A stretch of DNA of 64,000 nucleotides, from NCBI GenBank assembly GCA_020429915.1, contig JAGQKV010000018.1:69770-133769 (forward strand). The letters run 5' to 3'. This document shows, one piece after another, positions 42,701 through 58,606 of this stretch (positions are counted from its first letter, which is position 1; the number at the start of each line of letters is the position of its first letter). The DNA comes from Candidatus Omnitrophota bacterium (GTDB taxonomy: Bacteria; Omnitrophota; Gorgyraeia; Zapsychrales; Zapsychraceae). The translations under genes were made by a program, and so were the position numbers. The notes beneath the pieces were generated by a model. The model was not told where the DNA came from and did not search any database. It was given only the letters and a program-made list of their open reading frames with translations.

Positions 42701-45700
42701 CGTTCTCCGCGATTCCCGTCTCGAGGTCCACCACCTGAACATGCGGCTTATCCGACCGTTCCACCACGGCGACGGGCACATTAGGCAAAATCTCGGCGCG
42801 CAGCACCCCATCAAGAAGTTTGACCTGCCGTCTTTCCTTAAGGTCCCAGATCTCCCAGCGCGACACATTCATCCGTGATGGAAGCATCATAAAGCGACCG
42901 TCGCTGGACAGACGGAAATTGTCGTTGACGCTTATTTCCGCCGGGATGACATATGAGCCCGCATTACCGTCGACGTCAAAGATGACCGTGTCCCGCGTGC
43001 CGCGGTCGGTCACAAACACCAGTGTTTTACCGCCCGCGTCGGTGAGAAAACGCGGGATTTGCTCGGCGCTGAACCGTGACCTGACCCGCTGGTCATGCGT
43101 CGAGCGGAGCAGGATGTCTGCGCCTGCTTCGATGTAGTATTTGCCGTCGGACGAATACTGCATCAATTCCGGCCCCACACTGTGCCGCAACAGGGACGTA
43201 TTTCTGTCCCATACCTCCAGCGTATTGTCTTTGGAGTGAATCGCAATAGCGTCCTCAATAAATTTAACACTTCTAATATTGGACACCTCAATTTCCGAAC
43301 CGTGGATCATCGCGCTGATTTCTCCGGTCCGCACATTGCGGATCCGGATCGCCCCGTCCGCGTCCGCCGTGGCGATGTGATCTTTGTCCGCGCTGCCTAA
43401 ATAGTTTTGCTGTCCGTCACGTTCCGCCAACAGCTCGGTCAAGGGCTGAACCAGGTCCATCGGCCGATAAACATGCAGCAGATCCGCGTCCTCGTCTTCC
43501 GAATGAGACGCGGTGATGATCCATTCCCCTTTCGGACCGACAAACGTGGTTTGGGCCCGCTGGTCGGCGAGATCAAGGACCTGCTCCGGTTTATCGGTCG
43601 CGTCAAATCCGGTATCCTCACCTTCGGGCGGCCGCAGGTTCCAGATCTTGATTTTACTGTCGCTGCCGAGGGAAACCAGCTGCCGCCCGTCTCCCGTCAC
43701 CCCTAAATAATCGACTGTGTCCGTATGACCTTCATAAACATCCACGGCATCCAGGGTCGCCACATCAAACACGCCGATTTCATGAGTGCCCGCCATGATA
43801 TCGGTCATCGGCAGAACCAACCGCTTGCCGTCCGGTGTCAGGGTGGCCACATTGCGGGAGCTACCCCAACCCCGCATGTGCTTGATCTCACCGCCGGCAA
43901 ACAGCGGCAAGACCGTGACCTCCTCACCGATGCGTATGGCGAACCTCCCATCCGGCGTGGTCAGCAGTTGCCGCGACGTGGACGGTAAACTTTCCCGCGT
44001 CCCGGAGATGCGGTTCATTGTGTTGCCGGTCAAGTCGAACTGCCAGATTGAGGAGTCCGCGGTCATCACCAGAATCTGCTCCTCATGATCCGCATTCGCC
44101 TGCGCGAACACAATATCAGCCCTCCGGCCCGTGTCGGCAACGAGAACGTTCAGCAAAGTTCCGGTGCGCGCATCCCACATACGGACCGCGCCGTCAAACG
44201 TATGCGTCACCAGGACATTTCCGCTCGGATTGGCCTTCATCGAGAGCACAATCTGAGAATTTTCAAACTCGGTCGCGACGGTCCCGTCGGCCAAGTTCCA
44301 TTTCACAATACCGGTCCCGCGCACGGTCGTGTACAGGTATTGTCCGCCGGGCGCGATCTCCATCTGATCCCGGGATCGGACCGTGGCCAAACGAGGATCG
44401 CTCACGCTCAGCAGCGGGCGTCCGGTAGACGGATCGGAAACTGTCAACGTTTCGCCGTCGATACTGATCAGACGTTTGCCGTCCGGTGTTACCGTCGCCG
44501 CGCTGAACTGCGTCGTCCGGGCTAATTGAAAGTTCGTCACGGCGGGACCGAGATCCTCCTGCGTGGCGTAAACCTGTCCGAGACGGTCGGCAAAGGACTG
44601 CGCGGCCTTCGGGTCCTGGTCGTAGATCCGCAACCAACGGGAAATCACCCGTTTGATCCCGTCTCCCGAAACATACGGCACCGCTTCGTTGATAGCCGCA
44701 AAGGCCTCTTCCATACTCTCCAGGTTGCGGTTCCGGAAAATACGTCCGACAGTCTCCACCACCTCGGCGTCCACGGCCTCAAGCCCCATTTCATCAAGTT
44801 GGGACAACACGCGGTGAAAGTCCGCGTCGGATGCCTGTTCAACCAGCCCAGCGCCCAACAACAAATTTCCGAGATAGCGTTGCAGCCGTTGCGGATGATC
44901 CCGGTTGAGAAAATAAGCCGCGTTCACACTGAGAAACTCGGTATCCGGCGGCAGGATGCGTTCCAGATTTTCCAGCAGGTTCTCAAACAGCGCTCCCGAG
45001 TTCCCCTCCAGCGGAATGATCCACCGCCACTCGACACTGTCGCGCATATTTTCCGGGACCGCCGCGACAAAGGCATTGAGCCGGGCAAAGAGTTGTCTGA
45101 CCCGCTCCTCCGACGCATCGACCTCTTTGTTGACGGAGATGAATTTGGTTTTCATCGTCTCCCACCGGCGTTCCTCGTCGCTGAGAATAGCTTTATCTGT
45201 ATCTCCCCGCCCGATTTGCCGGGACAAAGCCTCAAATCTTTGTATGTCTTCCAATGTGACATTGGGAATTCGGCGTTCTCCGCGCTGGATCTGTTCGTAA
45301 AGTTCGGCCAGGGTGGGTTCCGACCGCTGCTTGAAGTACCGCTGCAACCAGCTCGCCTGGCCGGCGTTCACCACCGCGCTGAGCTCTTTAAACTCGTCCA
45401 GCATGGGCAGAACGTCAGCGGCCTCCGGCTGTTCGGCAGCTTCTGCCGTCGGCTGCAAAATCGTCCCCCGGGGAGATTGCCGCCGGCCGTAACCCCTGTA
45501 GTAATTCAGGCGAAGATTGAGCAGCATCGGTTGGTACTTGTACTTTTCGTACACCGCCCGGTTGATCAGCAGGTACGGCCCGGCCTCCAGGAATGTCACA
45601 TCCGCGCCGGTCTTAAACGGCACCACATAAGCCTTGCTGAATCGGCCGGGACGGAACGATTTTTCCAGCGACTCGGCCCCGGGGATCTGGTCCGGAGAAA

Positions 45701-48194
45701 TGCGATAAGTCAACTCCTCATGCAGGAAGAGTGTATCGGCGGGCACATCCATCTGCCGGAAAAGTTCATCGTTGGGTAAAATCAGCCCCTGCCTTTTCAT
45801 GATGAAAGGGATAAACACTTCCTTGGCCGTGTCGACCAGCGGCTGCAGCGCTTCGACGCGGGTATTGGATGCGTCCAGCAGTTGGACGGCCTCCATAAAT
45901 CCGTTCATCAAGGCGATCTGGTGTATCGGCTGACCTTCCACGATCTTGCGGGCCAAGGCCCGCACCGCGGTGTGTGTGCTTTCGTCGATCTCGATCTTAT
46001 CGCGGGATACCGTCAACTTAGTCGTCGAGGGCAGCTGAATGATCATCTCCCGCGGAAGTCCGTAGCCTTCAATTTCAGTGGCTTGAATATTAATCCCGCC
46101 AACCTGGAACACGACCCGCGTGTTGGACCGTTGCGCGGCCGACTGCGGCCCCTTGTAAAATACATGCACTTCCCGTCCGATCTCATCGGACGACTGGACC
46201 CGGGCGAAATCCTGATTCTCACCGCGACGCGGGATCAGGTACTTGTCCAATATGACACTGTCGCTCATACCGGATCCGCTGTCCTCCACGACAATCTGGT
46301 TCGTTCCGATTTGCACCCGCACTTCGGCGTTGGGGACATCATAGCGGACCTTGTCCCCGTTTAGAAATATATGATCGTCCAGCGGATTGATCATGATGCC
46401 GTTCAGTATGACCGGCATTTTGGTGAAAAGGTTGGTCCGTTCTTTAACGAAGGCGGTAATCAGCTCGCGGGTCGGGGCATCGAGTCCGCCGGGAAAGATA
46501 ATCCGCACGGCCGTTCCCGGGGTCGTCCGGGTACCGGCCAGAATGTTGAACTTGACATGTCCGTCCTCTCCCTTGAAAAACTGGATTTGACGGGCCGCTC
46601 CGTCAGACGTCTTGGTATCGACAACCACATGCGCCCCGGCACTCAACGCCGCATTGTTCTCATCAAGGACAAAGGCCAGCATCTGCAGGGCCCCCACCCC
46701 GAACCGGCCGATCGAAGTCGCACGGCCGGTGATCGCGTCGGCGGCGTTAGCGATCAGTTCCAAAACCGACTGCTGGATCGGCGCCTGGCGGGTGATCAGA
46801 AAATCGATCTTGGCCGGTTCGCGAGTGTCGCGTCCGGCGTTAACCAAGGACTGGAAGAGTTCCGGTTCCCCCACCGCGGGCAATGCATTGCGCCCTTGTT
46901 CGGCCCCCGATAGGAACAGTTTGCGGTACGTAATGAAATCACCCAAATCGACGGCGCTGGTGGTACTGAGAATGGCGGCGTCCCGCAGCGGTTGGGAAAC
47001 TTCCTCCGGTCTGACCGGATTCATATTGGTCGGCAGCGTCAACAGACTACCCCGCGTATCTGCCTGGGCCGCGAGGACCGCCCGGTCCGCGTTGACCTCC
47101 TCCACTTCCAGGACATCCGAGAATATATCCGCACCGAACCGCATCCCGCCGGAAAAGTATTTGCGCGGAATGACTTCCTGCAAGTCAGGATCAAATTCCT
47201 CGCGCACGAAATTGTACACACCTGTCCGGAAGGCCTCCAGGTATTGCCGGTAAATCCGCTCCTTGGCCGTCTTCTCGTCGATATCGATACCGTTAATCTT
47301 GTTTTCCCCGACATACACCTTCGCCAGGTAACTTTCGCGCAGATTTTGTTTAAACCATGTGGCCAGGATCAGCGAATGATAAATTTGTCGTAACGGGGCA
47401 AAATGTTCCCCTTTGTTGACTTCCTCCTCGATGACCGGAATCAGGACTTCTTTGATCATCTGCTCCGAAACATCCCGCATCTGCTCACTGCGTCCGCGCG
47501 CGGCCTCCTGTTCCCCGGGCTGATGTTCCAGCGCGTTATTCGCCAGGGCGAGATAGTCCTTTTCCATCATCACCTTCAGCCGGCTCTCCACGATAAAAGC
47601 CACGTCACCGCTGCGGTAGATCTTGGCCTTCTCAGGAACCACCCAAACCTTATTAAAAGTATCCACGGAGATATCGGTGTTGCCGAAGAGTTGCTGGGAT
47701 TTCCGATAAACACGGTCCCAGAAATCCTTGCCCAGCTTCTCCTCCGGATACATTATTGAGGCTGTCAGTTGTTTGAGAATATAGTCCTGCGCGAGCAGGT
47801 CTCGGCCCATGTCCGTGATGCCGAAGTTGTCGGGAATGATGCGGTCTTTTTCGTACGGCGAGAGATTCACCCACAACTCGTCATCCGGCACGGTGAGGGC
47901 GGTCAGAAAATACTTGATCAAAGTGGCGGCTTGCGGTTTAAGCGTGTCGGGGTCGGACTCGGCTGACCCGGTGTCCACGATGAAGTCAAACTGGAGCGGG
48001 TTGTCGGGATGAACGCGGATTCCCTTGACGATGACAGGATCGTACTCGGCGGAAGGGCGCACCATAGAGCCGGGCGCAGGAAGGGTTAGGCTTACGCTTT
48101 CCGAAGGAGTTTGAGCCAAGGCCGGAGCGGTCTGTTGTACCGCCAGCATAACGGCCAGTAATGTCGATAAAATGCGCCGCATAGAAATCCTCAA
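39792..48194 (-). CDS. giant secreted multidomain protein (2800 aa): two GHKL/Hsp90-sacsin-like ATPase motifs, PD40/WD40 beta-propeller repeats, HExxH motif
   Basis: Single uninterrupted ORF; signal peptide MRISMRRILSTLLAVMLAVQQTAPALAQTP; Bergerat N-box ELIANAADA + GRFGVGALQ..EDSGSGMS (aa ~478-645); blades ending VRMWD, IKIWN, IRIRN, LEVWD, EIWDL, TQVWD, MRIWD with TPDGKRL/SSDGRF/SNDGRF PD40-like motifs (aa ~1235-1960); second GHKL QNARDA..DRGTGMN..GNLGQGNYTLFADFDRVFIRT (aa ~2085-2180); FHESQHLPQFEEPGDHTHHDD (aa ~2624-2645). Confidence 0.75.
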   Translation of the reverse strand: MRISMRRILSTLLAVMLAVQQTAPALAQTPSESVSLTLPAPGSMVRPSAEYDPVIVKGIRVHPDNPLQFDFIVDTGSAESDPDTLKPQAATLIKYFLTALTVPDDELWVNLSPYEKDRIIPDNFGITDMGRDLLAQDYILKQLTASIMYPEEKLGKDFWDRVYRKSQQLFGNTDISVDTFNKVWVVPEKAKIYRSGDVAFIVESRLKVMMEKDYLALANNALEHQPGEQEAARGRSEQMRDVSEQMIKEVLIPVIEEEVNKGEHFAPLRQIYHSLILATWFKQNLRESYLAKVYVGENKINGIDIDEKTAKERIYRQYLEAFRTGVYNFVREEFDPDLQEVIPRKYFSGGMRFGADIFSDVLEVEEVNADRAVLAAQADTRGSLLTLPTNMNPVRPEEVSQPLRDAAILSTTSAVDLGDFITYRKLFLSGAEQGRNALPAVGEPELFQSLVNAGRDTREPAKIDFLITRQAPIQQSVLELIANAADAITGRATSIGRFGVGALQMLAFVLDENNAALSAGAHVVVDTKTSDGAARQIQFFKGEDGHVKFNILAGTRTTPGTAVRIIFPGGLDAPTRELITAFVKERTNLFTKMPVILNGIMINPLDDHIFLNGDKVRYDVPNAEVRVQIGTNQIVVEDSGSGMSDSVILDKYLIPRRGENQDFARVQSSDEIGREVHVFYKGPQSAAQRSNTRVVFQVGGINIQATEIEGYGLPREMIIQLPSTTKLTVSRDKIEIDESTHTAVRALARKIVEGQPIHQIALMNGFMEAVQLLDASNTRVEALQPLVDTAKEVFIPFIMKRQGLILPNDELFRQMDVPADTLFLHEELTYRISPDQIPGAESLEKSFRPGRFSKAYVVPFKTGADVTFLEAGPYLLINRAVYEKYKYQPMLLNLRLNYYRGYGRRQSPRGTILQPTAEAAEQPEAADVLPMLDEFKELSAVVNAGQASWLQRYFKQRSEPTLAELYEQIQRGERRIPNVTLEDIQRFEALSRQIGRGDTDKAILSDEERRWETMKTKFISVNKEVDASEERVRQLFARLNAFVAAVPENMRDSVEWRWIIPLEGNSGALFENLLENLERILPPDTEFLSVNAAYFLNRDHPQRLQRYLGNLLLGAGLVEQASDADFHRVLSQLDEMGLEAVDAEVVETVGRIFRNRNLESMEEAFAAINEAVPYVSGDGIKRVISRWLRIYDQDPKAAQSFADRLGQVYATQEDLGPAVTNFQLARTTQFSAATVTPDGKRLISIDGETLTVSDPSTGRPLLSVSDPRLATVRSRDQMEIAPGGQYLYTTVRGTGIVKWNLADGTVATEFENSQIVLSMKANPSGNVLVTHTFDGAVRMWDARTGTLLNVLVADTGRRADIVFAQANADHEEQILVMTADSSIWQFDLTGNTMNRISGTRESLPSTSRQLLTTPDGRFAIRIGEEVTVLPLFAGGEIKHMRGWGSSRNVATLTPDGKRLVLPMTDIMAGTHEIGVFDVATLDAVDVYEGHTDTVDYLGVTGDGRQLVSLGSDSKIKIWNLRPPEGEDTGFDATDKPEQVLDLADQRAQTTFVGPKGEWIITASHSEDEDADLLHVYRPMDLVQPLTELLAERDGQQNYLGSADKDHIATADADGAIRIRNVRTGEISAMIHGSEIEVSNIRSVKFIEDAIAIHSKDNTLEVWDRNTSLLRHSVGPELMQYSSDGKYYIEAGADILLRSTHDQRVRSRFSAEQIPRFLTDAGGKTLVFVTDRGTRDTVIFDVDGNAGSYVIPAEISVNDNFRLSSDGRFMMLPSRMNVSRWEIWDLKERRQVKLLDGVLRAEILPNVPVAVVERSDKPHVQVVDLETGIAENDFDTGPPLMEEMRSVFPWRVSNDGRFLLYTTTDMSTQVWDLFDNRLAHTVEDGHWAIKISPDNKYIIMVNTAMDQLSIRDIATGEIIHEWQPHDGTMEAFDITAAEGLISTTGSDGVMRIWDMEDLINPTERRTGFAALNPRDRLDGLPGLLRAVVRFLREEDVTLLEEEEATPRNPAWRVTDRLSEPVSLALLNNLYETFSRTIQENPDIGFTEFLAMVEQLRGRNLEDYVGIIRSAIEGQDKTQRAWVREIAVQNARDATRRAREENTLAVTDGDIEIRNFMEGNDWVFAVRDRGTGMNLFHLIRYFFPLDQSSKDYLTDTGNLGQGNYTLFADFDRVFIRTSTGDGVIHELQIVPDARRGPVIESWEVLSGVERGTEIRRIKNNQKSDPQLESLFIQEALQRFAGGITSPEQRANRDEAPNVRDVRINYNGETFTDEIDTVAVTSMGEQWGEVSVGRADERFKKRVMQDGIFIKEPDQKELRFVPTWLLAAFERRGGLHIALPRSIQLNIPRTGYSQEHKFIKELQLTVLHNILKTVLRDYVDDGRKIPGMPADYFDNFRKIERADAQDLVRKMYTGRYGEIDEQVLSEYLETPTRLFALLSYLPFESDAYSGEMTLHEIRERFIERSQIRARTAGAVQIDERTRLKSDFKPRGEFAADLEESIGNLSDYAAGITGGRLQGFISAAQSRRLDPAEVWDRLPAGGRLFLDYLIRRFLQPVVGEDMPAVEFYNRLDSASASSGVGGMRWNLAYNERVFAQLLALRNNPEQLEVFLSSAEAGNELWNFLETLFHESQHLPQFEEPGDHTHHDDTDIEGLDPRNDQRFGIRMGRAIDAFLTGLTGDFTAEFTRSTEEMEVFIREVDTAARQRKQQPGSDSAVLSQPSREVGGIDLNPNRIDLEVSGDNGVTAIPLDTTTLDSIPVEGFYPVILNVLPTNLPLLLGANTELPEDDSEPQLISALREEDTLL

Positions 48195-48355: not shown

Positions 48356-49480
48356 TCAGGAGTGATAAAGTTCAAGATAACGGGCGGCCATGGAGGAAAT
48401 GGAGAAATCTTTTTGCACATGGAGACGGGACTGGACGCCCATCTCTTTGGGGAGGGTCTTTATGGCGTTTAGGCGCATGATGGCCGAATCGATGCGTTCG
48501 GGAAATCCGCACGGCACCAGATAACCGGTCTGCCGCTCGAGAATCACTTCGGCATTGGCACCGATCTTGGTGGCGATGACCGGCGTCCCGGAGGCCATTG
48601 CCTCCAGCAGCGTGAACGGATAGGCCTCTTTGTGCGCACAGTGCACCAGGACATCGAAGAGTTGCAGAAACTCAACCCGCGACAGACGCCCGGCGAGGAA
48701 ATGCACGCGATCAGCGACCTTGTAAAGCTGAGCCTTTTTTTCCAAATCTTTGCGCAGCGGCCCTTCACCCGTAAAGATCAACTCCGCGTTCATCCCCTTG
48801 GCGCGCAGCTTGCGAAACGCCTTGAGCAGCGAAGCCTGGTCCTCCTCCTTCACCAGTGCCCCCGTATTTCCGAGGATAAAAGAATCCGCCTGCAAGCCGA
48901 GCTTTTCGCGGTTAACGTTTTCGGCATTGATTCCGAAATTCTGCATATACATCTGCTCGTCGATCCCGTCGTAGATGATCTTCATTTTCCTGTCCTGCAG
49001 GTATTGTTCCTTAAACAGCTTGCGCTGGACGAATTCGGAGGTGGTGACAATGTGATTGTTCAACGCGCGGACATAGCGCGACAGCGGTTTGGCGGTCAGC
49101 CAGTGACAGGAAAATATAGATTTGGCGCGGCCGATCTTGGCCGCGATCGCCGCATGGACGGCAATTTCGGGGCTGTGCGCGTGGACGATGTTAAAACCAT
49201 GGGAGCGGATAAACTTCCCTAGCTTGAACATCAACCGGATATCCGGCCCTTCGGCCTTGGTGTAGGTGTAGACGTTGATTCCGCGGATCTTCAAGACGTG
49301 GGCGATGTCGGTCTCGCGGACGACGTGAATAATCTCGGCCTCCGCCCCCTGTTCCTGCTGCTTGTAGATCAGAGCGGCAATGAGATCTTTCAGATCGGAG
49401 CGTGTGATGGAGTAGGCAATATGCGCGATTTTGTCCATGGCTGTCGGGTCCTGTTCCCCGGGGAACACACCTGCCAGCAA
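48356..49480 (-). CDS. glycosyltransferase family 4
   Basis: 374 aa (alternative ATG at 49438); ..KEAYPFTLLEAMASGTPVIATKIGANAEVILERQTGYLVP.. Confidence 0.75.
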   Translation of the reverse strand: MLAGVFPGEQDPTAMDKIAHIAYSITRSDLKDLIAALIYKQQEQGAEAEIIHVVRETDIAHVLKIRGINVYTYTKAEGPDIRLMFKLGKFIRSHGFNIVHAHSPEIAVHAAIAAKIGRAKSIFSCHWLTAKPLSRYVRALNNHIVTTSEFVQRKLFKEQYLQDRKMKIIYDGIDEQMYMQNFGINAENVNREKLGLQADSFILGNTGALVKEEDQASLLKAFRKLRAKGMNAELIFTGEGPLRKDLEKKAQLYKVADRVHFLAGRLSRVEFLQLFDVLVHCAHKEAYPFTLLEAMASGTPVIATKIGANAEVILERQTGYLVPCGFPERIDSAIMRLNAIKTLPKEMGVQSRLHVQKDFSISSMAARYLELYHS

Positions 49481-49483
49481 CGG

Positions 49484-50164
49484 TTACGCGTCAGGCAGGT
49501 ATTGTTGATGTTCGCGAATAAACTGGGCGGTATGTGCGGCCTCCACCCCGCCCGCCAGCACGTGGCCGCGGAACTTGAGCAGGGCCGCGATGGTATCGAT
49601 ATCTTCTTTCTCGGATAACAACGATACATTATGCTCGATTTGACGGACTTTTTCAAGCGTCTTGCTCAAAACCGTTGGTGTTCCCCAGTCGATATCCGCA
49701 AACGGCTCCGGCCGCAGGACATTCATGCCGATCAGATAGTATCCTCCGTCCGCCGAGGGCCCGACGCAATATTCCGTCCGTTCCAAATCAGCAAAAGCCT
49801 GCTTGATATCAACCCCTGTCACCTCCAGACAATCCGTTCCGATAATCGATACCCGACGGTAACCCAGGGCAAAGCAGTCGCCGGCAGCCCGGTACATCCG
49901 TGCGCCGAGGTCTTCTCCCTGCTGCGGGACGACCGGACACCGCGCGCGGAATTCCGATAAAAACGGCGGGTCGGCGTCGTCATCGGCAAAATAGAGGAAC
50001 GGGGACCAGTCGCCCGGCCGCAACGCCAGCGTCATCACGTCCTGAATAAAGGCGCGGTACAATCCGGTCACGAATCCCGTGTCAAGATCCGTCAAAAGCC
50101 GGGTCTTAACCTTGCCGGGTTTCGGTTCCCGGGCGAAGATGATCAACGCGTTGGAATGGGTCAT
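49484..50164 (-). CDS. DUF2064 family protein (TIGR04282-like nucleotidyltransferase-fold protein)
   Basis: ORF track start 50260 overlaps upstream GT2 by 155 nt; ATG at 50164 gives MTHSNALIIFAREPKPGKVKTRL.. characteristic of DUF2064. Confidence 0.55.
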   Translation of the reverse strand: MTHSNALIIFAREPKPGKVKTRLLTDLDTGFVTGLYRAFIQDVMTLALRPGDWSPFLYFADDDADPPFLSEFRARCPVVPQQGEDLGARMYRAAGDCFALGYRRVSIIGTDCLEVTGVDIKQAFADLERTEYCVGPSADGGYYLIGMNVLRPEPFADIDWGTPTVLSKTLEKVRQIEHNVSLLSEKEDIDTIAALLKFRGHVLAGGVEAAHTAQFIREHQQYLPDA

Positions 50165-50822
50165 AATTTTGATAACGGTCTTTGAAAAAAGGGATGCCGG
50201 TCCACAGCTGAAGATAGGCCAGTGAATACTGTCCGAAGGTGGCCATGAATCCGCGTTCATCCCACTTGCGGGCGGAAACCTCTATCCGGGAATTCAATAC
50301 GGTGATGGGATAATGCCGGCGCAACCGTTTGGAAAACACGATGTCGTCCATGATGATCAAACGGTCGAATCCGTGCAGCGCCTCGAAGACGTCACGCCGG
50401 ATGAACATACCGAGATCCGCATCAATGATGCCGTGACGGACGGCCCGGTGATTGACGACCCACTCATACAGCCGGAACATGGCTCCGGGGTGACGGATGT
50501 GCATGGTGTAACAGCCGGCCTGCGCGCCGTGACGGAAGGCGTCGGCGGTTTGGTGGATCATTTCTTCGGATATGAAGGAATCGACATTCAAAAACAACAG
50601 GAAATCGCCGTCGGTGACCTGCACGCCGTAGTTTTTCTGGTAGGCGCGACCCGGGCGGGTTTGCAGCACCTCGCCGAAGCGGCGGGCGCGCGTCACGGTC
50701 ATGTCGATACTTCCTCCGTCGACAAATACCAGGTTGGCGTTCCGGCCGAGCATCCGGTAATACGTCTGCCGTTCGTCCAGGATCATTTCTTCGTTCAGTA
50801 CGGGAATGATGATATCCAGCAT
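50106..50822 (-). CDS. glycosyltransferase family 2 (TIGR04283-like)
   Basis: Probable start MLDIIIPVLNEEMIL (track start 50852); ..LVFVDGGSIDMT.. ..FLNVDSF..; still overlaps DUF2064 gene start. Confidence 0.65.
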   Translation of the reverse strand: MLDIIIPVLNEEMILDERQTYYRMLGRNANLVFVDGGSIDMTVTRARRFGEVLQTRPGRAYQKNYGVQVTDGDFLLFLNVDSFISEEMIHQTADAFRHGAQAGCYTMHIRHPGAMFRLYEWVVNHRAVRHGIIDADLGMFIRRDVFEALHGFDRLIIMDDIVFSKRLRRHYPITVLNSRIEVSARKWDERGFMATFGQYSLAYLQLWTGIPFFKDRYQNYDPFQRVDHLRPGTETRQG

Positions 50823-50829
50823 ACGGGCG

Positions 50830-51879
50830 TCAGCAACACCCTCCGGCGGCATCTTCCTCGGCGGTGATCATCGGCGTCTCCCCGCAGCCGGCGAACAAAC
50901 CGAAGTGCTCTGAGGTATCCCCGTGGATGTCGAAGTGCTTGTGCAGCCGGGTGTCCTGCAGCATGAAGGCTGTGTTCGAACAGACCGGCAGCGGCCGGTT
51001 GCGTTCAAAGACATGATGATTGTCGAGCATAAAACGGTGCCGGCTCTCGGGGATTGTCCCTTTGTAGACCGCGGACTGGCCGTAATCTTCACAGGCCGTC
51101 TCCAGTTGCGGCAATTTGAATAAACGGTAGGTGATGGAATTGAAATTGGCGAAACCGATCTTGTCGATCGTCTCGGGATCAAGGAGATCGATTTTCGAGT
51201 TGGCAAAGACCCGCGGATCGATAAAACCGATGCGGTTGGCCAGCCGTTCGAAATCTTTCCAGTACAGCGCACCGCCCAGGCATTCGCCCAGCAGGACCTG
51301 ATCTTCCTTGGCCCAAGCGGGCAGGCGCCGGTCGACGTAAACGTCGGAAAAGAAGAATTCGCCGCCTTCTTTGAGGACTCGGTAGACTTCACCCAGCACC
51401 GCTTCTTTGTCCGGGGAGAGATTGACCACGCAATTGGAGACGACGATATCGAAATAATCGTCCGGCAAGCCGAGCGATTCGAGGTCTTCGATGTACCCCT
51501 TAATGAAGCGCACGTTGGGTTTTTGAAAACCGAACTTTTCCATCTGCACGGGAAGGTACTTGCTACCCACCTCAAGCTGTTCGTCGGTCATATCAATGCC
51601 GACGACCTCTCCCTCCTGCCCCACGAAGAAAGACAAAACAAAGCAGTCGCGTCCGGTACCGCAACCAAGGTCCAGCACCTTCATGCCCTCGAGCACAAGC
51701 GGGAACGGTGCGCCGCAGCCGTAAAACTTGGTCTGAATCTCATCCTCGATCAGCTTCAACGGTTCGCGGACATAATCCGGCACCTTGTCCAAGGCGCAAC
51801 AGGCGCTGGTTTTCAAATCGCGCTTTGTCTGCAGGACCTTACCGTAATACTCGCTCACTTTCTGATGAGTCAACGTGCT
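50830..51879 (-). CDS. AS3MT/ArsM-family SAM-dependent methyltransferase (arsenite methyltransferase homologue)
   Basis: Colinear with animal AS3MT: ..EYYGKVLQTKRDLKTSACCALDKVP..EIQTKFYGCGAP..VLDLGCGTGRDCFVLSFFVG..GIDMTDEQLEVGSKYL..VSNCVVNLSPDKEAVLGEVYRVLKEGGEFFFSDVY..WGECLGGALYWKDF.. and C-terminal ..AAGGCC; start at MSTLTHQ (51879), MKERP (51897) or 51957. Confidence 0.8.
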   Translation of the reverse strand, partial: STLTHQKVSEYYGKVLQTKRDLKTSACCALDKVPDYVREPLKLIEDEIQTKFYGCGAPFPLVLEGMKVLDLGCGTGRDCFVLSFFVGQEGEVVGIDMTDEQLEVGSKYLPVQMEKFGFQKPNVRFIKGYIEDLESLGLPDDYFDIVVSNCVVNLSPDKEAVLGEVYRVLKEGGEFFFSDVYVDRRLPAWAKEDQVLLGECLGGALYWKDFERLANRIGFIDPRVFANSKIDLLDPETIDKIGFANFNSITYRLFKLPQLETACEDYGQSAVYKGTIPESRHRFMLDNHHVFERNRPLPVCSNTAFMLQDTRLHKHFDIHGDTSEHFGLFAGCGETPMITAEEDAAGGCC

Positions 51880-52053
51880 CATGGGCCTCTCCTTCATGTT
51901 TGGCCGGACAGGGATGCCACGCTGCCGGGCAGCGTCGACGGCGATATTTGGCGACAAACGTCCCTAGTTTAGCCAATTTCATCGATAGTGTCAAAATTTT
52001 TCCGGACGTAAGGTCCGGACACATCCCGCTAACAGAAGCCCGCGTGCGAATAT

Positions 52054-53601
52054 TCAACGGACCTGTAAATAGTCAGGCCGGCGACGGACTTCCCACACCA
52101 AAACCAGAAAGAACGGCACATAAATAAAATAGCTGAGCGCCGGGATCCCCCACCAAATCCAGTCGACAAATGGATAGACGGATTGAAAGTTCAGATAACT
52201 GAGAATCAATGTCCCGGACAGCAAGATCCAGGAGCGGTAGGGAAACAGGCACAGGAACGGGATACACCAACAAAAGTACCACGGGTCTCCCACGGGATTG
52301 ATGAGGAAGAGTCCGGCCACGGCCAACAGGCAGCGATGCAACCGTTCCGTGGCACCGGCGCACGGCCGGACGCTGAGCCAGAGAATTCCGGCCCCATACA
52401 AGACCGCGGCCACGACTTTCGGCGGGATCAGGGTCCGCACCCAGTCCGCATTCATTTCTTCCATCACCCGGTAGATGACGGCAAACACACTCGAGTTGTA
52501 CGACCACTCCGCATTGTACGTGGACAACCCGCGGAAGATCTCCGTGAAACTAGCGTCATTCCACAACAAAAAAGGAACATAGGCAAAGGCGATCACGGCA
52601 AAAAAAGCCGGTATGCCGCGCCGGCGGCCCGCCCCGGCAAACAGCGGCAGCAAGACTACCGAGAAAAACTTCGACAATGTGGCCAATGCCAGGGCAACGA
52701 ACCCCTTTAATGCGCGATCGGTCACCAGCCAATAGACGGCCAGCAGCGTAAAGAATATGGCCACCGGATCAAAATGTCCCGCATTCGGAAATTCCTTGAG
52801 GACCAGCGGCGACCAGGCATAAATGATCACCATGGCCGGATTCCGTCCGCCGTGGCGCAGCAGCAAGACGGTCAGTGCGATGACGCCCAGATCAAACAGC
52901 ATAAAAATGAATTTCATAAAAATAAAAGAATCCGGCCGCAACCAGCTAATCATCGCGAATACCGCCTGCGCTACTGGCGGATAAATAGTAGGGACCTGCC
53001 AATGACCGATGCGGTCATAAAACAGACGGTTGGCGTCACGCAGCTCGAGCAACCGGTCCAGCCGGGTCATGTCCGCTCTCTCCCGTGTCCGCGCCGAAAG
53101 AACGACGCCGCCGATGTCGTCGTAATAGTCCTCGGTATAATGATATTCATGCATGAAAAGATCGCTGGGCGCGTACTTGTAGGGATTGATCCCGTGAACC
53201 GTCGCTTTACCGTCCCACAGGTAACGGTAAAAATCATTTTCATGAATGGGCTCACCCGGCAGGAGGATCAACCGGAACACAATGGCGAAAGCGAGTACTG
53301 TGCCGAACAGCCACGGATCGGCCTGCGACCGTTCGATGCGCAGCGTCAGATAGGCCACCAGCAGAAAGGCGATGAAAAACACGACCAGAAAGGCCGTGGT
53401 CGGCATGGCGTTATTGTCGACCTGATAGTAAAATCCGTTCTCCATGGCCATGACGGACGACGTAAACAGACCGCCGGTTGCCCGGTCGATGATTTGACAC
53501 CACAGTTTGGGCAGTCCCTTGGACATGGCCGTGACCGATCCCCACAGGCCGCACAGGATCACTCCGATCACGATCAGTTCGGCGCGCAGGCGTCTCAACA
53601 T
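52054..53601 (-). CDS. GT-C fold integral membrane glycosyltransferase (DUF2029 / PIG-M mannosyltransferase-like)
   Basis: 515 aa, ~11-13 TM; first periplasmic loop ..PGEPIHENDFYRYLWDGKATVHGINPYKYAPSDL.. typical of DUF2029/GT87-like enzymes. Confidence 0.5.
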   Translation of the reverse strand: MLRRLRAELIVIGVILCGLWGSVTAMSKGLPKLWCQIIDRATGGLFTSSVMAMENGFYYQVDNNAMPTTAFLVVFFIAFLLVAYLTLRIERSQADPWLFGTVLAFAIVFRLILLPGEPIHENDFYRYLWDGKATVHGINPYKYAPSDLFMHEYHYTEDYYDDIGGVVLSARTRERADMTRLDRLLELRDANRLFYDRIGHWQVPTIYPPVAQAVFAMISWLRPDSFIFMKFIFMLFDLGVIALTVLLLRHGGRNPAMVIIYAWSPLVLKEFPNAGHFDPVAIFFTLLAVYWLVTDRALKGFVALALATLSKFFSVVLLPLFAGAGRRRGIPAFFAVIAFAYVPFLLWNDASFTEIFRGLSTYNAEWSYNSSVFAVIYRVMEEMNADWVRTLIPPKVVAAVLYGAGILWLSVRPCAGATERLHRCLLAVAGLFLINPVGDPWYFCWCIPFLCLFPYRSWILLSGTLILSYLNFQSVYPFVDWIWWGIPALSYFIYVPFFLVLVWEVRRRPDYLQVR

Positions 53602-54344
53602 ACCCGGTCCGCCACGGAGGCCACGGGTCCGCGGCCCGGATGGCGGAAGAATTTGTATTTGAAAATCGTATGGAGAATTTTGTGCCCCGCCAGGATGGTT
53701 CCCGTCACGGTCCCTGATATTTTGGAGACACCTGTGCGGCGACGGTAATCGACGGGAACTTCCGTGGTGCGGACCCCCTTTTCGACGGCCCGAATCTGCA
53801 TCTCGATGGTCCAGCCGAAATCACGGTCGGTCATGCCGACCTGCTCCAAAGCACGGCGGGTTATGGCGCGAAAAGGGCCGAGATCGGTATAAACGGCCCC
53901 CCAGAATAGTTTCATCAGAAAACAGGCGAGCTTGTTTCCGTAATAAGCCTGCGGGGTCATGGCACCGCATTCCCTGTTTCCCAACGCTCGTGAACCGATG
54001 ACAAAATCGTGGCTACCGGAAAGAATCGGCTGAATCAGCCGTGGTAATTGATCCGGATGATCGCTGTAATCGCCGTCGACAAAGACCACGATATCGGCCG
54101 CCGGATCCAGCGCCGCAATCCCGGCCAGACAGGCTTGCCCGTAACCACGACGGTCCTCCCGGATAACGCGGCAGCCCAGCTTGGCTGCGACCGAGGCCGA
54201 CCCGTCGGTGCTGGCATTATCGACCACAATAATTTCGCGCAGGAGATTTTTCGGAAGATCGGCAATCACCTTCGGCAGGGACGCCTCTTCATTGAAGACG
54301 GGGATGATGACGGAGATCGTGTGCTGAGAATTGGGCATGGTCAT
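53595..54344 (-). CDS. polyprenol-phosphate sugar synthase-like GT2 (DPM1/ArnC-like)
   Basis: Probable start M(T)MPNSQHTISVIIPVFNEEASLPKVIADL.. ..VVFVDGDYSDHP.. ..FGWTIEMQIRAV..; 7-nt overlap with GT-C gene. Confidence 0.7.
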   Translation of the reverse strand: MTMPNSQHTISVIIPVFNEEASLPKVIADLPKNLLREIIVVDNASTDGSASVAAKLGCRVIREDRRGYGQACLAGIAALDPAADIVVFVDGDYSDHPDQLPRLIQPILSGSHDFVIGSRALGNRECGAMTPQAYYGNKLACFLMKLFWGAVYTDLGPFRAITRRALEQVGMTDRDFGWTIEMQIRAVEKGVRTTEVPVDYRRRTGVSKISGTVTGTILAGHKILHTIFKYKFFRHPGRGPVASVADRVC

Positions 54345-54426
54345 ATAACTGTGGTATCCCGATCGATATGGTTCCCGCTGAGCCGCCGTCCCCAACAGGT
54401 ACGGGTATGCCTTTATTCAAAGCCTT

Positions 54427-54819
54427 CTAGATCCGGGCGGCAATTGCGCGCTCAATGCGCAAAGATTCCGCCTCGTCCCCGAAGGTCCCCAGACGAATCT
54501 TGATCTTGGAAGCCTTAAGGGTCAGAGATTCGATCGTGATCTTGATGTGCCGGCCGTCGGGGTGTTTGGCGTTGATCTCGGATCCCTCCTGTCCCAGATC
54601 CTCACTGACGATCATCGCGCCGATATCCTGGCGCAATGCATCCAGGGCGGCACCGTGTAATTCGGCGTAGTGGGCGTCGACGTTCTGTTCCAGCGCACCG
54701 GTGACATACGCGTATCCGCCGACTCCGACGGCAGCACCGGCCACCAGCATGCAACCCTGAGCGCTGGCAACCGTCACCCCCAGTAAAACTGTCCTTACCC
54801 ATGAATTCGTGGATCGCAT
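54427..54819 (-). CDS. small secreted/lipoprotein, tandem paralogue 1 (glycine-zipper GxxxGxxxG)
   Basis: Start MRSTNSWVRTVLLGVTVASAQGCMLVAGAAVGVGGYAYVTGAL..; ~60% identical to downstream paralogue. Confidence 0.55.
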   Translation of the reverse strand: MRSTNSWVRTVLLGVTVASAQGCMLVAGAAVGVGGYAYVTGALEQNVDAHYAELHGAALDALRQDIGAMIVSEDLGQEGSEINAKHPDGRHIKITIESLTLKASKIKIRLGTFGDEAESLRIERAIAARI

Positions 54820-54854
54820 ACGGTATCCTTTCCGGGATGAGGCAGGCCGCATCC

Positions 54855-55244
54855 CTACAAGCGGTTCATGGTCGCGTTTAAGATGCGCAGAGACTCAGCT
54901 TCATTACCGAACGTCCCGTAACGGATCTTGATCTGTGCCGCCCGTTCCGTGAGGGCCTCGATATCGATCTTGATGGTCGTTCCGTCCTCACTCTCGGCAT
55001 GAATATCCGCGGACGACTGGCCGATCGATTCCTTGACCACAAATGCACCGATGTCACGCAGTCCGTCCAACGCCGCCGAATGAACGTCGGCATAATTCGC
55101 GTCCACGTTCTTGGCCAGCGCACCGGTGACATACGCGTATCCGCCGGCCCCCACCACCGCTCCGGCCACCAGCATACAACCTTGAGCGCACATAACGGTC
55201 AGGCTCAACAACGCCAACGACAACAAACTCGTAAATCTTTTCAT
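54855..55244 (-). CDS. small secreted/lipoprotein, tandem paralogue 2
   Basis: MKRFTSLLSLALLSLTVMCAQGCMLVAGAVVGAGGYAYVTGALAKNVDANYADVHSAALDGL..; same architecture as 54427..54819. Confidence 0.55.
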   Translation of the reverse strand: MKRFTSLLSLALLSLTVMCAQGCMLVAGAVVGAGGYAYVTGALAKNVDANYADVHSAALDGLRDIGAFVVKESIGQSSADIHAESEDGTTIKIDIEALTERAAQIKIRYGTFGNEAESLRILNATMNRL

Positions 55245-55266: not shown

Positions 55267-56565
55267 TCACGGCCGGAAAAACTCCTTCAAGGCGTCGGCC
55301 AGATTCTTGAGATCCTTTTTCGAATGCACACCGCTCACAAAGAAAGCCTCCAAATCGGCCGGGGGCCAGTAGATCCCGCGCGCCAACAAGTGGTGGAACA
55401 ACTCACCGTAGCGCTCGTGACCTTGAGCAGTTTGGGCATCGTGATAATTATAGACAGGATCCGACGAAAAACGAAGGCTCATCATGGAAAAATAATCACA
55501 GATATGAGCGGCAATGCCTTCGTCCCGGAAGAAGGTGTTCATTTCAGTGGCAAAAGCGTTGCACCGCGTATTCAGGGCCTGATAGAATTCGTCCGAGAGC
55601 AATTTGAGCTGGGCCAGTCCGGCGCGCATCACCACCGGGTTCCCTGAGAAGGTGCCGGCCTGGTAGACCGGCCCCAGCGGCGCCAGGTGATCCATAATCT
55701 CCGCCCGCCCGCCGTAGGCCCCGATCGGAAATCCGCCGCCGATGATCTTCCCCAAACAAGTCAGGTCGGGTGTGATGCCGACGTCGGCCTGCACCCCGCC
55801 GCGTTGCGGCCGGAATCCGCTCATGCACTCGTCGAAAATAAGTACCGTTCCGTGCCGGCTCGTCTCATCCCGCAGGCTCCGCAGAAACTCCAGCCGTGCC
55901 CGGATCACCCCCATGTTTCCCGCGACGGGTTCCAGAATGACGGCGGCAATCTGATCGCCCTGTTCGCCCATCACCTTTTCAAAAACGGCGGTGTCGTTAA
56001 ACGGCAGGCTGATGGTATTCTCGATATGGCTTTGCGGGATCCCCGCGGAAGATGATTCAGCCAGGGCCGCGACGCCGGACCCGGCCGTCGTCAACAAGTC
56101 ATCCACATGACCGTGATAACAGCCGTCGAACTTGATAATTTTGGCCCGGCTGGTGTAACCCCGCGCTAGCCGCAGCGCGCTCATCGTGGCCTCGGTCCCG
56201 GAATTGACGAAACGAATCTTCTCGATCGACGGCATGCTCTCCACAATAAACTCGGCAATTTCCACTTCGGCCCGTGTCGAGGCGCCGAAACTGATACCGC
56301 GTTCGGTCAGCTTCTTTGTCTGGAGAATGACATTGCGATGGGCGTGACCGGTAATTAGCGAACCCCATGACAGGCAGTAGTCGGTGTACTCATTGTCATC
56401 CTGGTCGGTCAGCGTGGCGCGGTGCGCCGACTTCATGACCAGCGGATGGCCGCCGACCCCCTTAAAGGAGCGTACCGGGGAATTGACGCCCCCGACCATC
56501 ACGGCGCACGCCCTCTCGTAAATTTTGTCGGAATTTGTCTGTTTGACCGTTGCGTGCTCAGCCAT
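55267..56565 (-). CDS. hemL: glutamate-1-semialdehyde 2,1-aminomutase
   Basis: 432 aa; ..YERACAVMVGGVNSPVRSFKGVGGHP.. aminotransferase class III, PLP-lysine region ..TPDLTCLGKIIGGGFPIGAYGG.. Confidence 0.9.
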   Translation of the reverse strand: MAEHATVKQTNSDKIYERACAVMVGGVNSPVRSFKGVGGHPLVMKSAHRATLTDQDDNEYTDYCLSWGSLITGHAHRNVILQTKKLTERGISFGASTRAEVEIAEFIVESMPSIEKIRFVNSGTEATMSALRLARGYTSRAKIIKFDGCYHGHVDDLLTTAGSGVAALAESSSAGIPQSHIENTISLPFNDTAVFEKVMGEQGDQIAAVILEPVAGNMGVIRARLEFLRSLRDETSRHGTVLIFDECMSGFRPQRGGVQADVGITPDLTCLGKIIGGGFPIGAYGGRAEIMDHLAPLGPVYQAGTFSGNPVVMRAGLAQLKLLSDEFYQALNTRCNAFATEMNTFFRDEGIAAHICDYFSMMSLRFSSDPVYNYHDAQTAQGHERYGELFHHLLARGIYWPPADLEAFFVSGVHSKKDLKNLADALKEFFRP

Positions 56566-58606
56566 AAATCATCATCTCGCTTTCGTAATTATGTTCCCGC
56601 AATGCCTGCTGCGTCACCGGACCTTTGCTGAGAATGGTCCAATCCGCCGGGATCGATTGATATTTGTCTAAAAAGCTATTCACCGTCGACGGGCTGGTAA
56701 AAATGATCTTATCCACTTGACCGGCGGGCAGCTCCGCCTTCGCAGTGGGCTCGTTGACGTAAACGGTCAGCTGGGTGACGTGCGCCCCCAGCTTTTCCAG
56801 TTCGGTTTTCAAATACGGATTGGGAAGATTGGAGCGCGGAAAGAGGATGCGTTTCCCCTGCACATCATACTTCTGCGTTAAAAGTCTGAACAGGCCGCGG
56901 GATGTTTCATCGGACGCCACATAACGAGGATGATAATCCGCGTCCATCAATGCCTGAGCCGTATCTTTGCCGATCACTACGATATCCTTCTCGGCCAGCA
57001 ATCCGCACATAGCCGGCCGGCGGCGCGCCAGTTCGAGAAAATGGACGACCGCAAAGCGGCTGGTCAGCAGAATGATGTCATACGCGGGGAAATCTGCGGC
57101 CAGCTGGTCGGCCTGCTCGCCGGTGATCTCGGCGGGTGAGATCTCGATCATCGGCAAATGGATAAGGCTGCCCATCGAGCGATATTTTTCCGGGTGGGTC
57201 CCCGTGTAAACAATCGTTTCCCGGTCCCGTTCGGGCCGATAAAATGTCACGACCTTGCCGATCACAATGAGTGCCGGCGGCTGGGCGTTCACCGCGCGGG
57301 CGCGGTCAACAATATTCTCGAGGTCGCCGGTCACGATCGTCTCATCATAACGGGTGCCCCGGGAAATGATCGCGACAGGCGTCGCGATGTCGCGCCCGGA
57401 GCCGCGCACAGCAAAGACGATCGCCTCCAGCTTGCTGAGCCCCATCAAAAATACCAGCGTGTCCACTCCCTGCGGGACATGAATCGCGTCGTTGCGGATG
57501 GATGTCTCCTCGGCCTGATGGGCGCTGAGAAACGCCACGGATGAGGAATAATCACGCGCCGTCAACGGCATCCCCAATCGCGACGGGATACCAGTGGCGG
57601 AGCTGACACCGGGGATGACATTGACACGCATATGATATTTGCGCAGATAACCGATTTCGTCGGCCCCGCGACCGAATATCAACGGATCGCCGCCCTTGAG
57701 CCGTACAACCTTCTTCCCCGCCATGGCCTGCTGACGGATCAACCGGCACAGCTCCTGCTGCAAAAGGGTGTGATCCCCTTTGCGTTTTCCGACATAGACC
57801 TTCTCGGCCTGCGGCGCATGCTCCAGAATGGCTTTATGGACGAGATAATCGTACATGACGCAATCCGCCGAGCGCAGGGCCTTCATCCCTTTTAAGGTGA
57901 TCAAATCCGGATCACCGGGACCGGCGCCGACCAAGGTGACTTCACCGTATTCGCGGCGCACGTCGAACGGTTCAAAAAACCGGCGCAACGCCCGGTTATC
58001 CCGGCGGCCGACCACGGCCAGCTGCCCTTGCAGCGGAAATCCTTCCCACGGCATGATGCCCGTAATCCGGTCTTCCAGGCCGAGGCGTTTCAGGGCCACG
58101 GTGGCGACGATCAAGCCGTCCAGTTCGCCGGCATCGATCTGAGCCAGCCGTTCTTCGATCGTGCCGCGCACGGCTACCAGTTCGCAGTCCGGTCGCAGAC
58201 GGGCGACCGACTCACGCCGCAAACCGCTGCTGGTACCGATGCGACTGCCCGCGGGGAGCCTGCCAAGGCTTTGCCGCCCGACGAAGGCGTCCGTCTCGTC
58301 GGGGCTGCGGGTCAGCGCGAGTATCATTAAATCAGCAGGCAGTTTTTCGGGAAGATCCTTGGCGCTGTGGACCGCCACGTCAATCAGGCCGTCCAGGACG
58401 GCCTGATCGAGAACATCGGTCCATAAATTGTCCTTTTTGTTCTGCATGAGCGACGTTTTTTTGTCGAGATCCCCGGCCGATTGAAACGTCTCATGCGTCA
58501 CGGAAATATCACGGCAGGCCTCGGCTATCATCGCCCGTAGCTCATCGACCTGAATAACGGCCAAGCGGCTGGCGCGCGAGCCGATATGTAGTTTTTGAAT
58601 AGGCAT
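56558..58606 (-). CDS. trifunctional fusion: porphobilinogen deaminase (HemC) + uroporphyrinogen-III C-methyltransferase (CobA/SUMT) + uroporphyrinogen-III synthase (HemD)
   Basis: 682 aa; N-terminal MPIQKLHIGSRASRLAVIQV.. (HemC), middle ..VTLVGAGPGDPDLITLKGMKALRSADCVMYDYLV.. (SUMT), C-terminal ~240 aa HemD-like; 8-nt overlap with hemL. Confidence 0.75.
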   Translation of the reverse strand: MPIQKLHIGSRASRLAVIQVDELRAMIAEACRDISVTHETFQSAGDLDKKTSLMQNKKDNLWTDVLDQAVLDGLIDVAVHSAKDLPEKLPADLMILALTRSPDETDAFVGRQSLGRLPAGSRIGTSSGLRRESVARLRPDCELVAVRGTIEERLAQIDAGELDGLIVATVALKRLGLEDRITGIMPWEGFPLQGQLAVVGRRDNRALRRFFEPFDVRREYGEVTLVGAGPGDPDLITLKGMKALRSADCVMYDYLVHKAILEHAPQAEKVYVGKRKGDHTLLQQELCRLIRQQAMAGKKVVRLKGGDPLIFGRGADEIGYLRKYHMRVNVIPGVSSATGIPSRLGMPLTARDYSSSVAFLSAHQAEETSIRNDAIHVPQGVDTLVFLMGLSKLEAIVFAVRGSGRDIATPVAIISRGTRYDETIVTGDLENIVDRARAVNAQPPALIVIGKVVTFYRPERDRETIVYTGTHPEKYRSMGSLIHLPMIEISPAEITGEQADQLAADFPAYDIILLTSRFAVVHFLELARRRPAMCGLLAEKDIVVIGKDTAQALMDADYHPRYVASDETSRGLFRLLTQKYDVQGKRILFPRSNLPNPYLKTELEKLGAHVTQLTVYVNEPTAKAELPAGQVDKIIFTSPSTVNSFLDKYQSIPADWTILSKGPVTQQALREHNYESEMMIYG

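Follow-up and report, generated by a model that had tools for sequence, protein, structure and literature searches.

A probable Omnitrophota variant of an organoarsenical biosynthesis cluster, with an ArsM-type methyltransferase among predicted polyprenyl-phosphate-linked glycosyltransferases

A 64-kb stretch of contig JAGQKV010000018.1 from a Candidatus Omnitrophota bacterium (hereafter the window) carries a gene for an ArsM/AS3MT-type arsenite S-adenosylmethionine (SAM) methyltransferase set among glycosyltransferase genes. The array spans 48356–54395 and consists of six open reading frames (ORFs), all on the minus strand, which we delimited from the ORF list and its translations and identified with Pfam and NCBIfam profile searches. 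In the order of transcription they encode a DPM1-like family-2 glycosyltransferase (GT2), a GT-C integral-membrane glycosyltransferase and, after a gap of 171 nt, ArsM, a TIGR04283-like GT2, a TIGR04282/DUF2064 protein and a GT4 glycosyltransferase. We consider it probable that this locus represents an Omnitrophota version of a conserved gene cluster for organoarsenical (arsenosugar-type) biosynthesis, one in which a step in the periplasm depends on polyprenyl phosphate. Three features are distinctive: an AS3MT-type ArsM stands at the place usually held by ArsS, ArsS itself is absent locally, and a putative lipid-linked periplasmic glycosyl-transfer pair is present that comparison ties to ArsS and ArsM.

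Only the first two steps of arsenosugar synthesis are described as established in the sources on which we draw. ArsM supplies methylarsenite by methylation, and ArsS, a radical-SAM enzyme, adenosylates dimethylarsenite, DMAs(III), to 5'-deoxy-5'-dimethylarsinoyl-adenosine (DDMAA) (PMC13598754; Xue et al. 2019 as cited in 10.1101/2022.09.23.509062). Synechocystis is the organism in which Xue et al. 2019 (as cited in 10.1101/2022.09.23.509062) are reported to have demonstrated this ArsM/ArsS chemistry.

Judged by its sequence, the methyltransferase (50830–51882, minus strand, 350 aa) is a canonical ArsM/AS3MT. Searches of the PDB matched it to Chlamydomonas ArsM (5evj, E = 2e-107, query residues 7–334) and, over essentially the whole protein, to Cyanidioschyzon CmArsM (4fr0/4kw7, E = 4e-93) and to the arsenite methyltransferase 8xt7 (E = 2e-76); Pfam Methyltransf_31 scores 120 bits. 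These full-length matches include the N-terminal, SAM-binding and C-terminal domains and bear out the colinearity with AS3MT that an initial annotation of this DNA had proposed, and the motifs it listed (EYYG, the paired cysteines, FYGCGAP, GCGTGRDC and a C-terminal GGCC) are all found in the translation. The start codon is the ATG at 51882, preceded by AAGGAG, a strong Shine-Dalgarno sequence, and not position 51879 as given there. The product is identical to a public protein (P0001) from a Candidatus Omnitrophica metagenome-assembled genome (MAG), which is met in many metagenomes. All four As(III)-binding cysteines of CmArsM (C44, C72, C174 and C224) are kept, aligning with C28, C56, C151 and C201 of the window protein. 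Identity is 49–52% to algal ArsM enzymes and 51–52% to the ArsM domain of the ArsS::ArsM fusions described below, and in a neighbour-joining tree the protein groups with the characterised algal enzymes and with that domain, outside the NF038099 "arsenosugar ArsM" clade, to which it has 28% identity. Since the four cysteines are kept and the protein groups with characterised ArsM and the fusion domain, arsenic, in the form of arsenite, is by far the likeliest predicted substrate, and a thiol or a sugar is unlikely. The initial annotation had set clustering with canonical ArsM against its own reading of the locus as a glycan pathway; the methyltransferase does cluster there, but its neighbourhood is nonetheless conserved in relatives.

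The two genes downstream of ArsM point in the same direction. They encode a TIGR04283-like GT-A GT2 (50106–50822, minus strand, 238 aa) and a TIGR04282/DUF2064 protein with a CofC/MobA-like nucleotide-diphospho-sugar-transferase fold (49484–50164, minus strand, 226 aa), and NCBIfam names both families "arsenosugar biosynthesis glycosyltransferase". The DUF2064 protein scores 173 bits against TIGR04282 (cutoff 134) and 103 bits against Pfam DUF2064 (cutoff 25.8), and it matches PDB entry 3cgx over residues 5–195 (E = 2e-26, 96 bits). The GT2 falls in a divergent Omnitrophota subgroup, and its nearest canonical TIGR04283 relatives are only about 33% identical. It keeps the DGGSxD and xD motifs, and D35 and D81 are invariant in the homologue alignment. 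A PDB sequence search with the GT2 gave no match; its AlphaFold model (pLDDT 89) has a GT-A fold that best matches WrtF, AvpGT, TarS/TarP, GtrB and DPMS, a generic GT-A result in which neither donor nor acceptor is singled out.

To place the pair in context we surveyed 80 TIGR04283 loci, one genome per species and 78 of them from outside Omnitrophota, with the profiles and the window proteins. Of the 78 non-Omnitrophota loci, 26 have a bona fide ArsS no more than 10 kb away, mostly in the order ArsS-GT2-DUF2064; one such ArsS scores 457 bits against TIGR04167 (cutoff 300). The initial annotation's statement that the methyltransferase is not next to ars genes and has an unknown substrate is therefore not supported, given these family names and this proximity to ArsS. 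Other neighbours in the 78 loci are DUF2064 (58), DUF547 (13), purine nucleoside phosphorylase (12) and the rhodanese NF045521 (10). An ArsM-type methyltransferase occurs in six, including L025 and L031, and the ArsM clade beside the pair varies by phylum, being of NF038099 type in L025 and L061 and of AS3MT type in L031, a Steroidobacteraceae MAG. Flagellimonas pacifica (L025:6698-10681) and similar flavobacterial loci array DUF2064, purine nucleoside phosphorylase, NF038099 ArsM, DUF547 and TIGR04283 and lack an ArsS within 10 kb; the phosphorylase of such arrays suggests phosphorolysis of DDMAA to arsenoribose-1-phosphate. At L086:9087-10497 a TIGR04283-like GT2 is followed by CheX instead of DUF2064, so the pair is not strictly inseparable. 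Literature searches for arsenosugar glycosyltransferase, TIGR04282/TIGR04283/DUF2064 and DUF547 yielded nothing beyond mentions in annotations and unrelated papers on plants.

Upstream of ArsM, the DPM1-like GT2 and the GT-C protein look like a polyprenyl-phosphate-sugar system, as had been suggested before, the GT-C model best fitting enzymes that use dolichyl-phosphate mannose (Dol-P-Man) or polyprenyl-phosphate mannose (PPM). The DPM1/AglJ-like enzyme (53595–54344, minus strand, 249 aa), a putative polyprenyl-phosphate hexose synthase, scores 91 bits against Pfam Glycos_transf_2, 136 bits against the NCBIfam AglJ model (cutoff 325) and 72 bits against that for dolichyl-phosphate hexose transferase, and it matches DPMS (5mlz), ArnC and GpgS in the PDB at about 1e-11. 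No transmembrane anchor is predicted in it; its coupling to the GT-C gene supports a role as a polyprenyl-phosphate glycosyltransferase. The GT-C protein (52054–53601, minus strand, 515 aa) is GT87 (formerly DUF2029)/PIG-M-like, with a Pfam GT87 score of 40.6 bits (cutoff 25) and at least nine hydrophobic segments. A motif H120-E121-x-D123 ... W129-D130, in the long loop after the third transmembrane segment, is invariant in 32 homologues. A PDB sequence search with this protein gave no match. The best folds for its AlphaFold model (pLDDT 92) are GPI mannosyltransferase I with Dol-P-Man (9wno), PimE (9dm5), ALG6 and ALG3, the matched entries including 6snh and 9s6r; the probability of these matches is 1.00 and the TM scores are 0.45–0.61, with modest Foldseek E-values (1e-3 to 3e-2). 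GPI mannosyltransferase I, PimE, ALG6 and ALG3 all use polyprenyl- or dolichyl-phosphate monosaccharide donors.

This pair appears, from comparison of its sequence neighbourhoods, to belong to the arsenic cluster. GT-C homologues were collected and their contexts read, and a metagenome scan with the GT-C alignment added 80 loci; ArsS, ArsM, ArsS::ArsM fusions, DUF547 and the TIGR04282/TIGR04283 pair were counted as markers. Relatives were classed as close if they scored at least 340 bits against the window protein and had 3 kb or more of flanking sequence, and as distant if they scored below 270 bits. An arsenic-cluster marker was found at 12 of the 15 close loci and at none of the 37 distant ones. 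ArsS is present in seven of the close loci, ArsM in seven and the DPM1-like partner in ten; some of these loci are near-duplicates, so the independent lineages are fewer than 15.

The link extends to a second phylum. In Candidatus Scalindua sp. (GCA_052827685.1; L090:6289-9879) the DPM1-like GT2 (70% identity to that of the window) and the GT-C (40%) are followed directly by ArsS, which scores 406 bits (cutoff 300). No ArsM lies within 7 kb of this locus; MerR, thioredoxin, MerC and HMA metal-handling genes come after ArsS. In four further loci (L096, L105, L107 and L108) the GT-C/DPM1-like pair adjoins an ArsS::ArsM fusion of 680–694 aa, in clusters that also hold DUF547, DedA, Pyr_redox, PHO4, DUF2064 and GT2. 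The full order in L108 is MsrB, GT2, DUF2064, PHO4 transporter, pyridine-nucleotide disulfide oxidoreductase, DedA, DUF547, a small secreted protein, GT-C, DPM1-like GT2 and the 680-aa fusion. L096 is similar, with a 694-aa fusion, and its DPM1-like protein bears an Omnitrophota name at NCBI. The order within the pair varies, DPM1-like before GT-C in the window type and Scalindua and the reverse in other lineages, and this shuffling favours functional linkage over inherited order. The literature searched reports no GT-C system linked to ArsS/ArsM.

The fusions themselves (L108:10548-12590, L096:10689-12773, and those in L105 and L107) combine a complete ArsS (Radical_SAM plus DUF3641) with an AS3MT-type ArsM in one ORF, so that a single polypeptide unites the two opening steps of arsenosugar synthesis; the L096 fusion belongs to a 90%-identity cluster with 31 members across many assemblies. 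The added genes at L108:3218-6613 and L096:1917-5320 encode a PHO4-family phosphate (perhaps arsenate) transporter, a pyridine-nucleotide disulfide oxidoreductase and a DedA/VTT protein. Upstream of GT-C, L096 and L108 have small secreted ORFs; compared with the DUF3568 proteins of the window, these are not of that family.

Within Omnitrophota, we examined ten related loci (L001–L007 and L086–L089) with ArsM identities of 69–83%, among which L002, a short contig, resembles L001 in type and L003–L005 are copies of one form. The five genes recognised in the initial annotation are a conserved set, the array being kept in these loci. ArsM and the TIGR04283-like GT2 occur in every locus that extends far enough, with DUF2064 next except in L086; GT-C is kept in L001, L002, L006, L007, L086, L087, L088 and L089, and the DPM1-like gene accompanies it except in L002 and L087. 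A DUF547 gene lies between GT-C and ArsM in L001, L007, L086, L087, L088 and L089, and its translation is coupled to that of GT-C in L087 and L088. The DUF547 proteins bear signal or lipoprotein leaders, which fit a periplasmic step. The family (L001:9226-9990, L108:6613-7392, L025:9184-9990 and some 20 more loci) recurs beside TIGR04283/TIGR04282 in Flavobacteria and beside GT-C in Omnitrophota.

In L003–L005 a DedA/VTT gene takes the place of the GT-C pair, directly upstream of ArsM at L003:9265-10014, and a membrane protein and a DegT aminotransferase are inserted. A 221-aa protein in L003 was considered as a diverged DUF547, and comparison says that it is not. The single-linkage "pyr_redox" cluster mixed DedA/VTT proteins with oxidoreductases (L003–L005 match it at the VTT gene), and its counts were not used as evidence. 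One locus, L089 (Ga0535658_0009881), whose GT-C protein (P0201) NCBI labels Lysobacterales, shows in full the array and flanks of the Omnitrophota type (hemD, hemL and DUF3568 on one side, cupin and sigma-54 on the other), and the label is therefore probably a binning error.

From the gene identities, catalytic residues and neighbourhood counts observed above, we infer a pathway in which every chemical step past methylation, and likewise any action of ArsS in trans, is conditional. In the first step, which the sequence supports well, ArsM would bind As(III) through its four cysteines and methylate it with SAM to methyl- and dimethylarsenite. Context and fold suggest that the TIGR04283-like GT2 and DUF2064 correspond, in this lineage, to the two proteins encoded after ArsS in other bacteria; the pair would presumably activate and transfer an arsenic-bearing ribosyl unit, or a sugar added to that unit. 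Where a cluster has a nucleoside phosphorylase, this enzyme would release arsenoribose-1-phosphate from DDMAA, which DUF2064 could activate and the GT-A enzyme transfer. On the cytoplasmic side, the DPM1-like GT2 would charge polyprenyl phosphate with a sugar, which the GT87/PIG-M-like GT-C would transfer at the periplasmic face. This periplasmic step probably acts on the organoarsenical or its acceptor and not on an unrelated envelope glycan, because the closest relatives of the pair are embedded with ArsS, ArsS::ArsM, DUF547 and DedA. A role in recycling the carrier lipid would suit the DedA present in the fuller clusters, in line with work on DedA/UptA.

Several observations weigh against assigning the locus to organoarsenical biosynthesis, and they are best taken together with the alternatives to which they lend weight. 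In the window the 171-nt gap, with a promoter-like site, parts the GT-C pair from ArsM; L003–L005 hold ArsM, GT2 and DUF2064 but lack the GT-C/DPM1-like pair; the GT-C relatives L091 and L092 (about 40% identity) have no arsenic context; and the flanks, with hemCD, hemL and DUF3568 upstream and cupin and sigma-54 downstream, are syntenic among Omnitrophota too, so that conservation within the phylum is by itself weak evidence. All of this favours two unrelated modules lying side by side, an ArsM for stand-alone detoxification (yielding volatile or less toxic species) and a DPM1-like, GT-C and GT4 set for envelope or exopolysaccharide (EPS) glycosylation, held together by the synteny of the phylum. 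The wealth of polysaccharide genes in the window adds to it, with an EPS/PEP-CTERM-type cluster at 1–17.8 kb and GT2, acyltransferase and cupin genes at 21–25 kb. We nevertheless judge such a juxtaposition unlikely, given the contrast in arsenic markers between close and distant GT-C relatives, the persistence of the link in Scalindua and in the divergent Omnitrophota form with ArsS::ArsM fusions, where gene order differs, and the translational coupling of GT-C in relatives to DUF547, itself a recurrent family of arsenosugar-type clusters in flavobacteria.

ArsS is missing from the 64-kb window, as judged by a CxxxCxxC motif scan and a six-frame TIGR04167 HMM search, and from within 7–10 kb in the ten related Omnitrophota loci; nor did the window yield a nucleoside phosphorylase, DedA or DUF547. 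Either another part of the genome encodes the ArsS of this lineage, or its pathway is a shortened one. An alternative is a truncated relic that has lost ArsS, DUF547, DedA and the transporter, with arsenite methylation as its only arsenic-related activity and the transferases drifted to another substrate. It gains from L096, Omnitrophota by its NCBI name, which has an ArsS::ArsM fusion with the full set, from the absence of DUF547 in L006 as well as in the window, and from the divergence of the Omnitrophota GT2, which at 164 bits lies just below the TIGR04283 cutoff of 182. Yet ArsM, GT2 and DUF2064 are intact and tightly packed across relatives at 69–100% ArsM identity, with their catalytic motifs conserved, and ArsS is not adjacent in 52 of the 78 canonical TIGR04283 loci either, so its local absence says little about the genome; we give a relic only a small chance. 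That the AS3MT homologue methylates a non-arsenic target, for instance a thiol or a sugar hydroxyl of the neighbours' glycan, a possibility brought up in the initial annotation, we hold to be very improbable. The window ArsM does fall below every NCBIfam ArsM cutoff (PRK11873, 166 against 263 bits; NF038099, 107 against 400), and the annotated neighbours include none of the classical ars genes (arsR, arsC, acr3). These models appear to cover other subtypes, however, as the AS3MT-type ArsM of L031 is also below the cutoffs, and the kept cysteines, the full-length identity to characterised ArsM, the occurrence of the same ArsM clade fused to ArsS and the arsenosugar-family names of neighbouring transferases linked by context to ArsS all argue for arsenic. 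The names themselves are based on genomic context, and the searchable literature contained no experiment on TIGR04282, TIGR04283, DUF547 or a GT-C of the window type. With these points weighed, an organoarsenical biosynthesis cluster remains the interpretation that we favour.

The fine structure of the array agrees in part with what had been described. All five genes of the initial annotation are present, on the minus strand. The GT-C and DPM1-like genes, which it placed after the methyltransferase, precede it in transcription order, separated from it by the gap at 51883–52053. Its overlapping stops and starts were found for GT2 and DUF2064, where the 3' end of the former runs 59 nt into the latter, and the stop of the DPM1-like gene overlaps the GT-C start by 7 nt. 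The overlap of the methyltransferase with the GT2 depends on the ATG chosen, amounting to 23 nt only with the upstream ATG at 50852 (248 aa, as in public gene calls); the homologue alignment favours the ATG at 50822, which lies 7 nt past the methyltransferase stop. Longer GT2 homologues have a C-terminal tail (LRPGTETR...), corresponding to the region 50106–50164, that is an out-of-frame reading of the conserved DUF2064 N-terminus (IFAREPKPGKVKTRL). The seeming conservation of this tail stems from the 59-nt overlap, and the tail is not a functional motif. A sigma-70-like promoter candidate, TTGACA-17-TAAACT, lies at 51966–51994 on the minus strand, upstream of the ArsM ATG. Six promoter-like sites were found in the region against 4.6 expected, and the promoter/terminator scan is not enriched over shuffles, so the candidate is a positional hint only, suggestive for lying in the sole sizeable gap. 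The GT4 (GT-B) gene directly downstream of DUF2064 (48356–49438, minus strand) scores 104 bits against Pfam Glycos_transf_1 and 150 bits against an NCBIfam stp2-like model (cutoff 409), and its homologues come after DUF2064 in L006, L087, L088 and L089.

The surroundings of the array hold further features, the four named first being on the minus strand. A tandem pair of DUF3568 lipoprotein paralogues that share 64% identity (54427–55244) comes shortly upstream of the DPM1-like gene; at this position relatives have one copy. Beyond them, a 682-aa triple fusion of porphobilinogen deaminase, a uroporphyrinogen methyltransferase-type TP_methylase and HemD (56558–58606) is conserved in the Omnitrophota loci L001, L003 and L086 and split in L087. 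A 1524-aa ORF (59205–63779) joins a complete AcrB-type RND pump (ACR_tran, 961 bits) to a C-terminal outer-membrane factor (OEP) domain. Immediately downstream of GT4, a 2800-aa ORF with several WD40/beta-propeller regions (39792–48194) is missing at that place in relatives. It is part of about 26 kb of extra genes (22099–48355) relative to L088 and L089, where cupin directly follows GT4, and this stretch also includes a Rex-like regulator, NuoF/NuoG-like and NiFe-hydrogenase subunits, a PEP-CTERM protein and a glutaminyl-tRNA-synthetase-like ORF. The location of the ArsM array is thus prone to rearrangement.

In aquatic food webs, arsenosugars and arsenosugar lipids rank among the major species of arsenic, and the searchable literature describes no enzymes for the steps after DDMAA. 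The clusters compared here offer candidate genes for such late, possibly lipid-linked steps: TIGR04283, TIGR04282, DUF547, the DPM1-like GT2, the dedicated GT-C, DedA and, in some lineages, the nucleoside phosphorylase. They suggest that part of the pathway may run on the periplasmic face via a lipid carrier, and they would place organoarsenical synthesis in Omnitrophota and Scalindua, uncultured or anaerobic groups, beyond cyanobacteria and algae. As a bolder and rather doubtful proposal, bacterial arsenosugar-type metabolism may have a previously unrecognised lipid-linked periplasmic branch, in which the DPM1-like GT2 and the dedicated GT-C, helped by secreted DUF547 and by DedA, would assemble a sugar-bound arsenical, or attach one, at the external side of the membrane. 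In the window lineage such a branch would operate with a free-standing AS3MT-type ArsM and no clustered ArsS, a hint at an ArsS acting in trans or at an ArsS-independent route. The product of such a branch could be an arsenosugar lipid or an envelope conjugate.

Set beside known systems, the locus combines elements of several. The methyltransferase resembles CmArsM (4fs8/4kw7) and Chlamydomonas ArsM (5evj) in its full-length colinearity, including the C-terminal domain, in its SAM-binding motif and in the four As(III)-binding cysteines, but its gene is set among glycosyltransferases and not in an ars resistance operon. With the arsenosugar neighbourhood of ArsM, ArsS (TIGR04167), TIGR04283 and TIGR04282 the window shares a tight array of ArsM and the TIGR04283-like/TIGR04282 pair, to which relatives add DUF547. 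It differs in having no local ArsS or nucleoside phosphorylase, in its additional DPM1-like/GT-C pair and GT4, and in an ArsM that is of AS3MT and not NF038099 type and occupies the usual place of ArsS upstream of the GT2. For the DUF2064 protein the nearest structure, 3cgx, is a structural-genomics entry annotated as a putative nucleotide-diphospho-sugar transferase, and the alignment covers the DGGYYLIG region. The upstream pair resembles Ppm1 with PimE/MptA in mycobacteria, DPM1 with PIG-M/ALG3 in eukaryotes, ArnC with ArnT, and GtrB with GtrC, in that its GT2, similar to DPMS, ArnC and AglJ, is translationally coupled to a GT-C that crosses the membrane several times and bears an acidic motif in a loop. 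In contrast to these pairs, the GT2 of the window has no transmembrane anchor, and its GT-C belongs to a subclade that is genomically tied to ArsS and ArsM.

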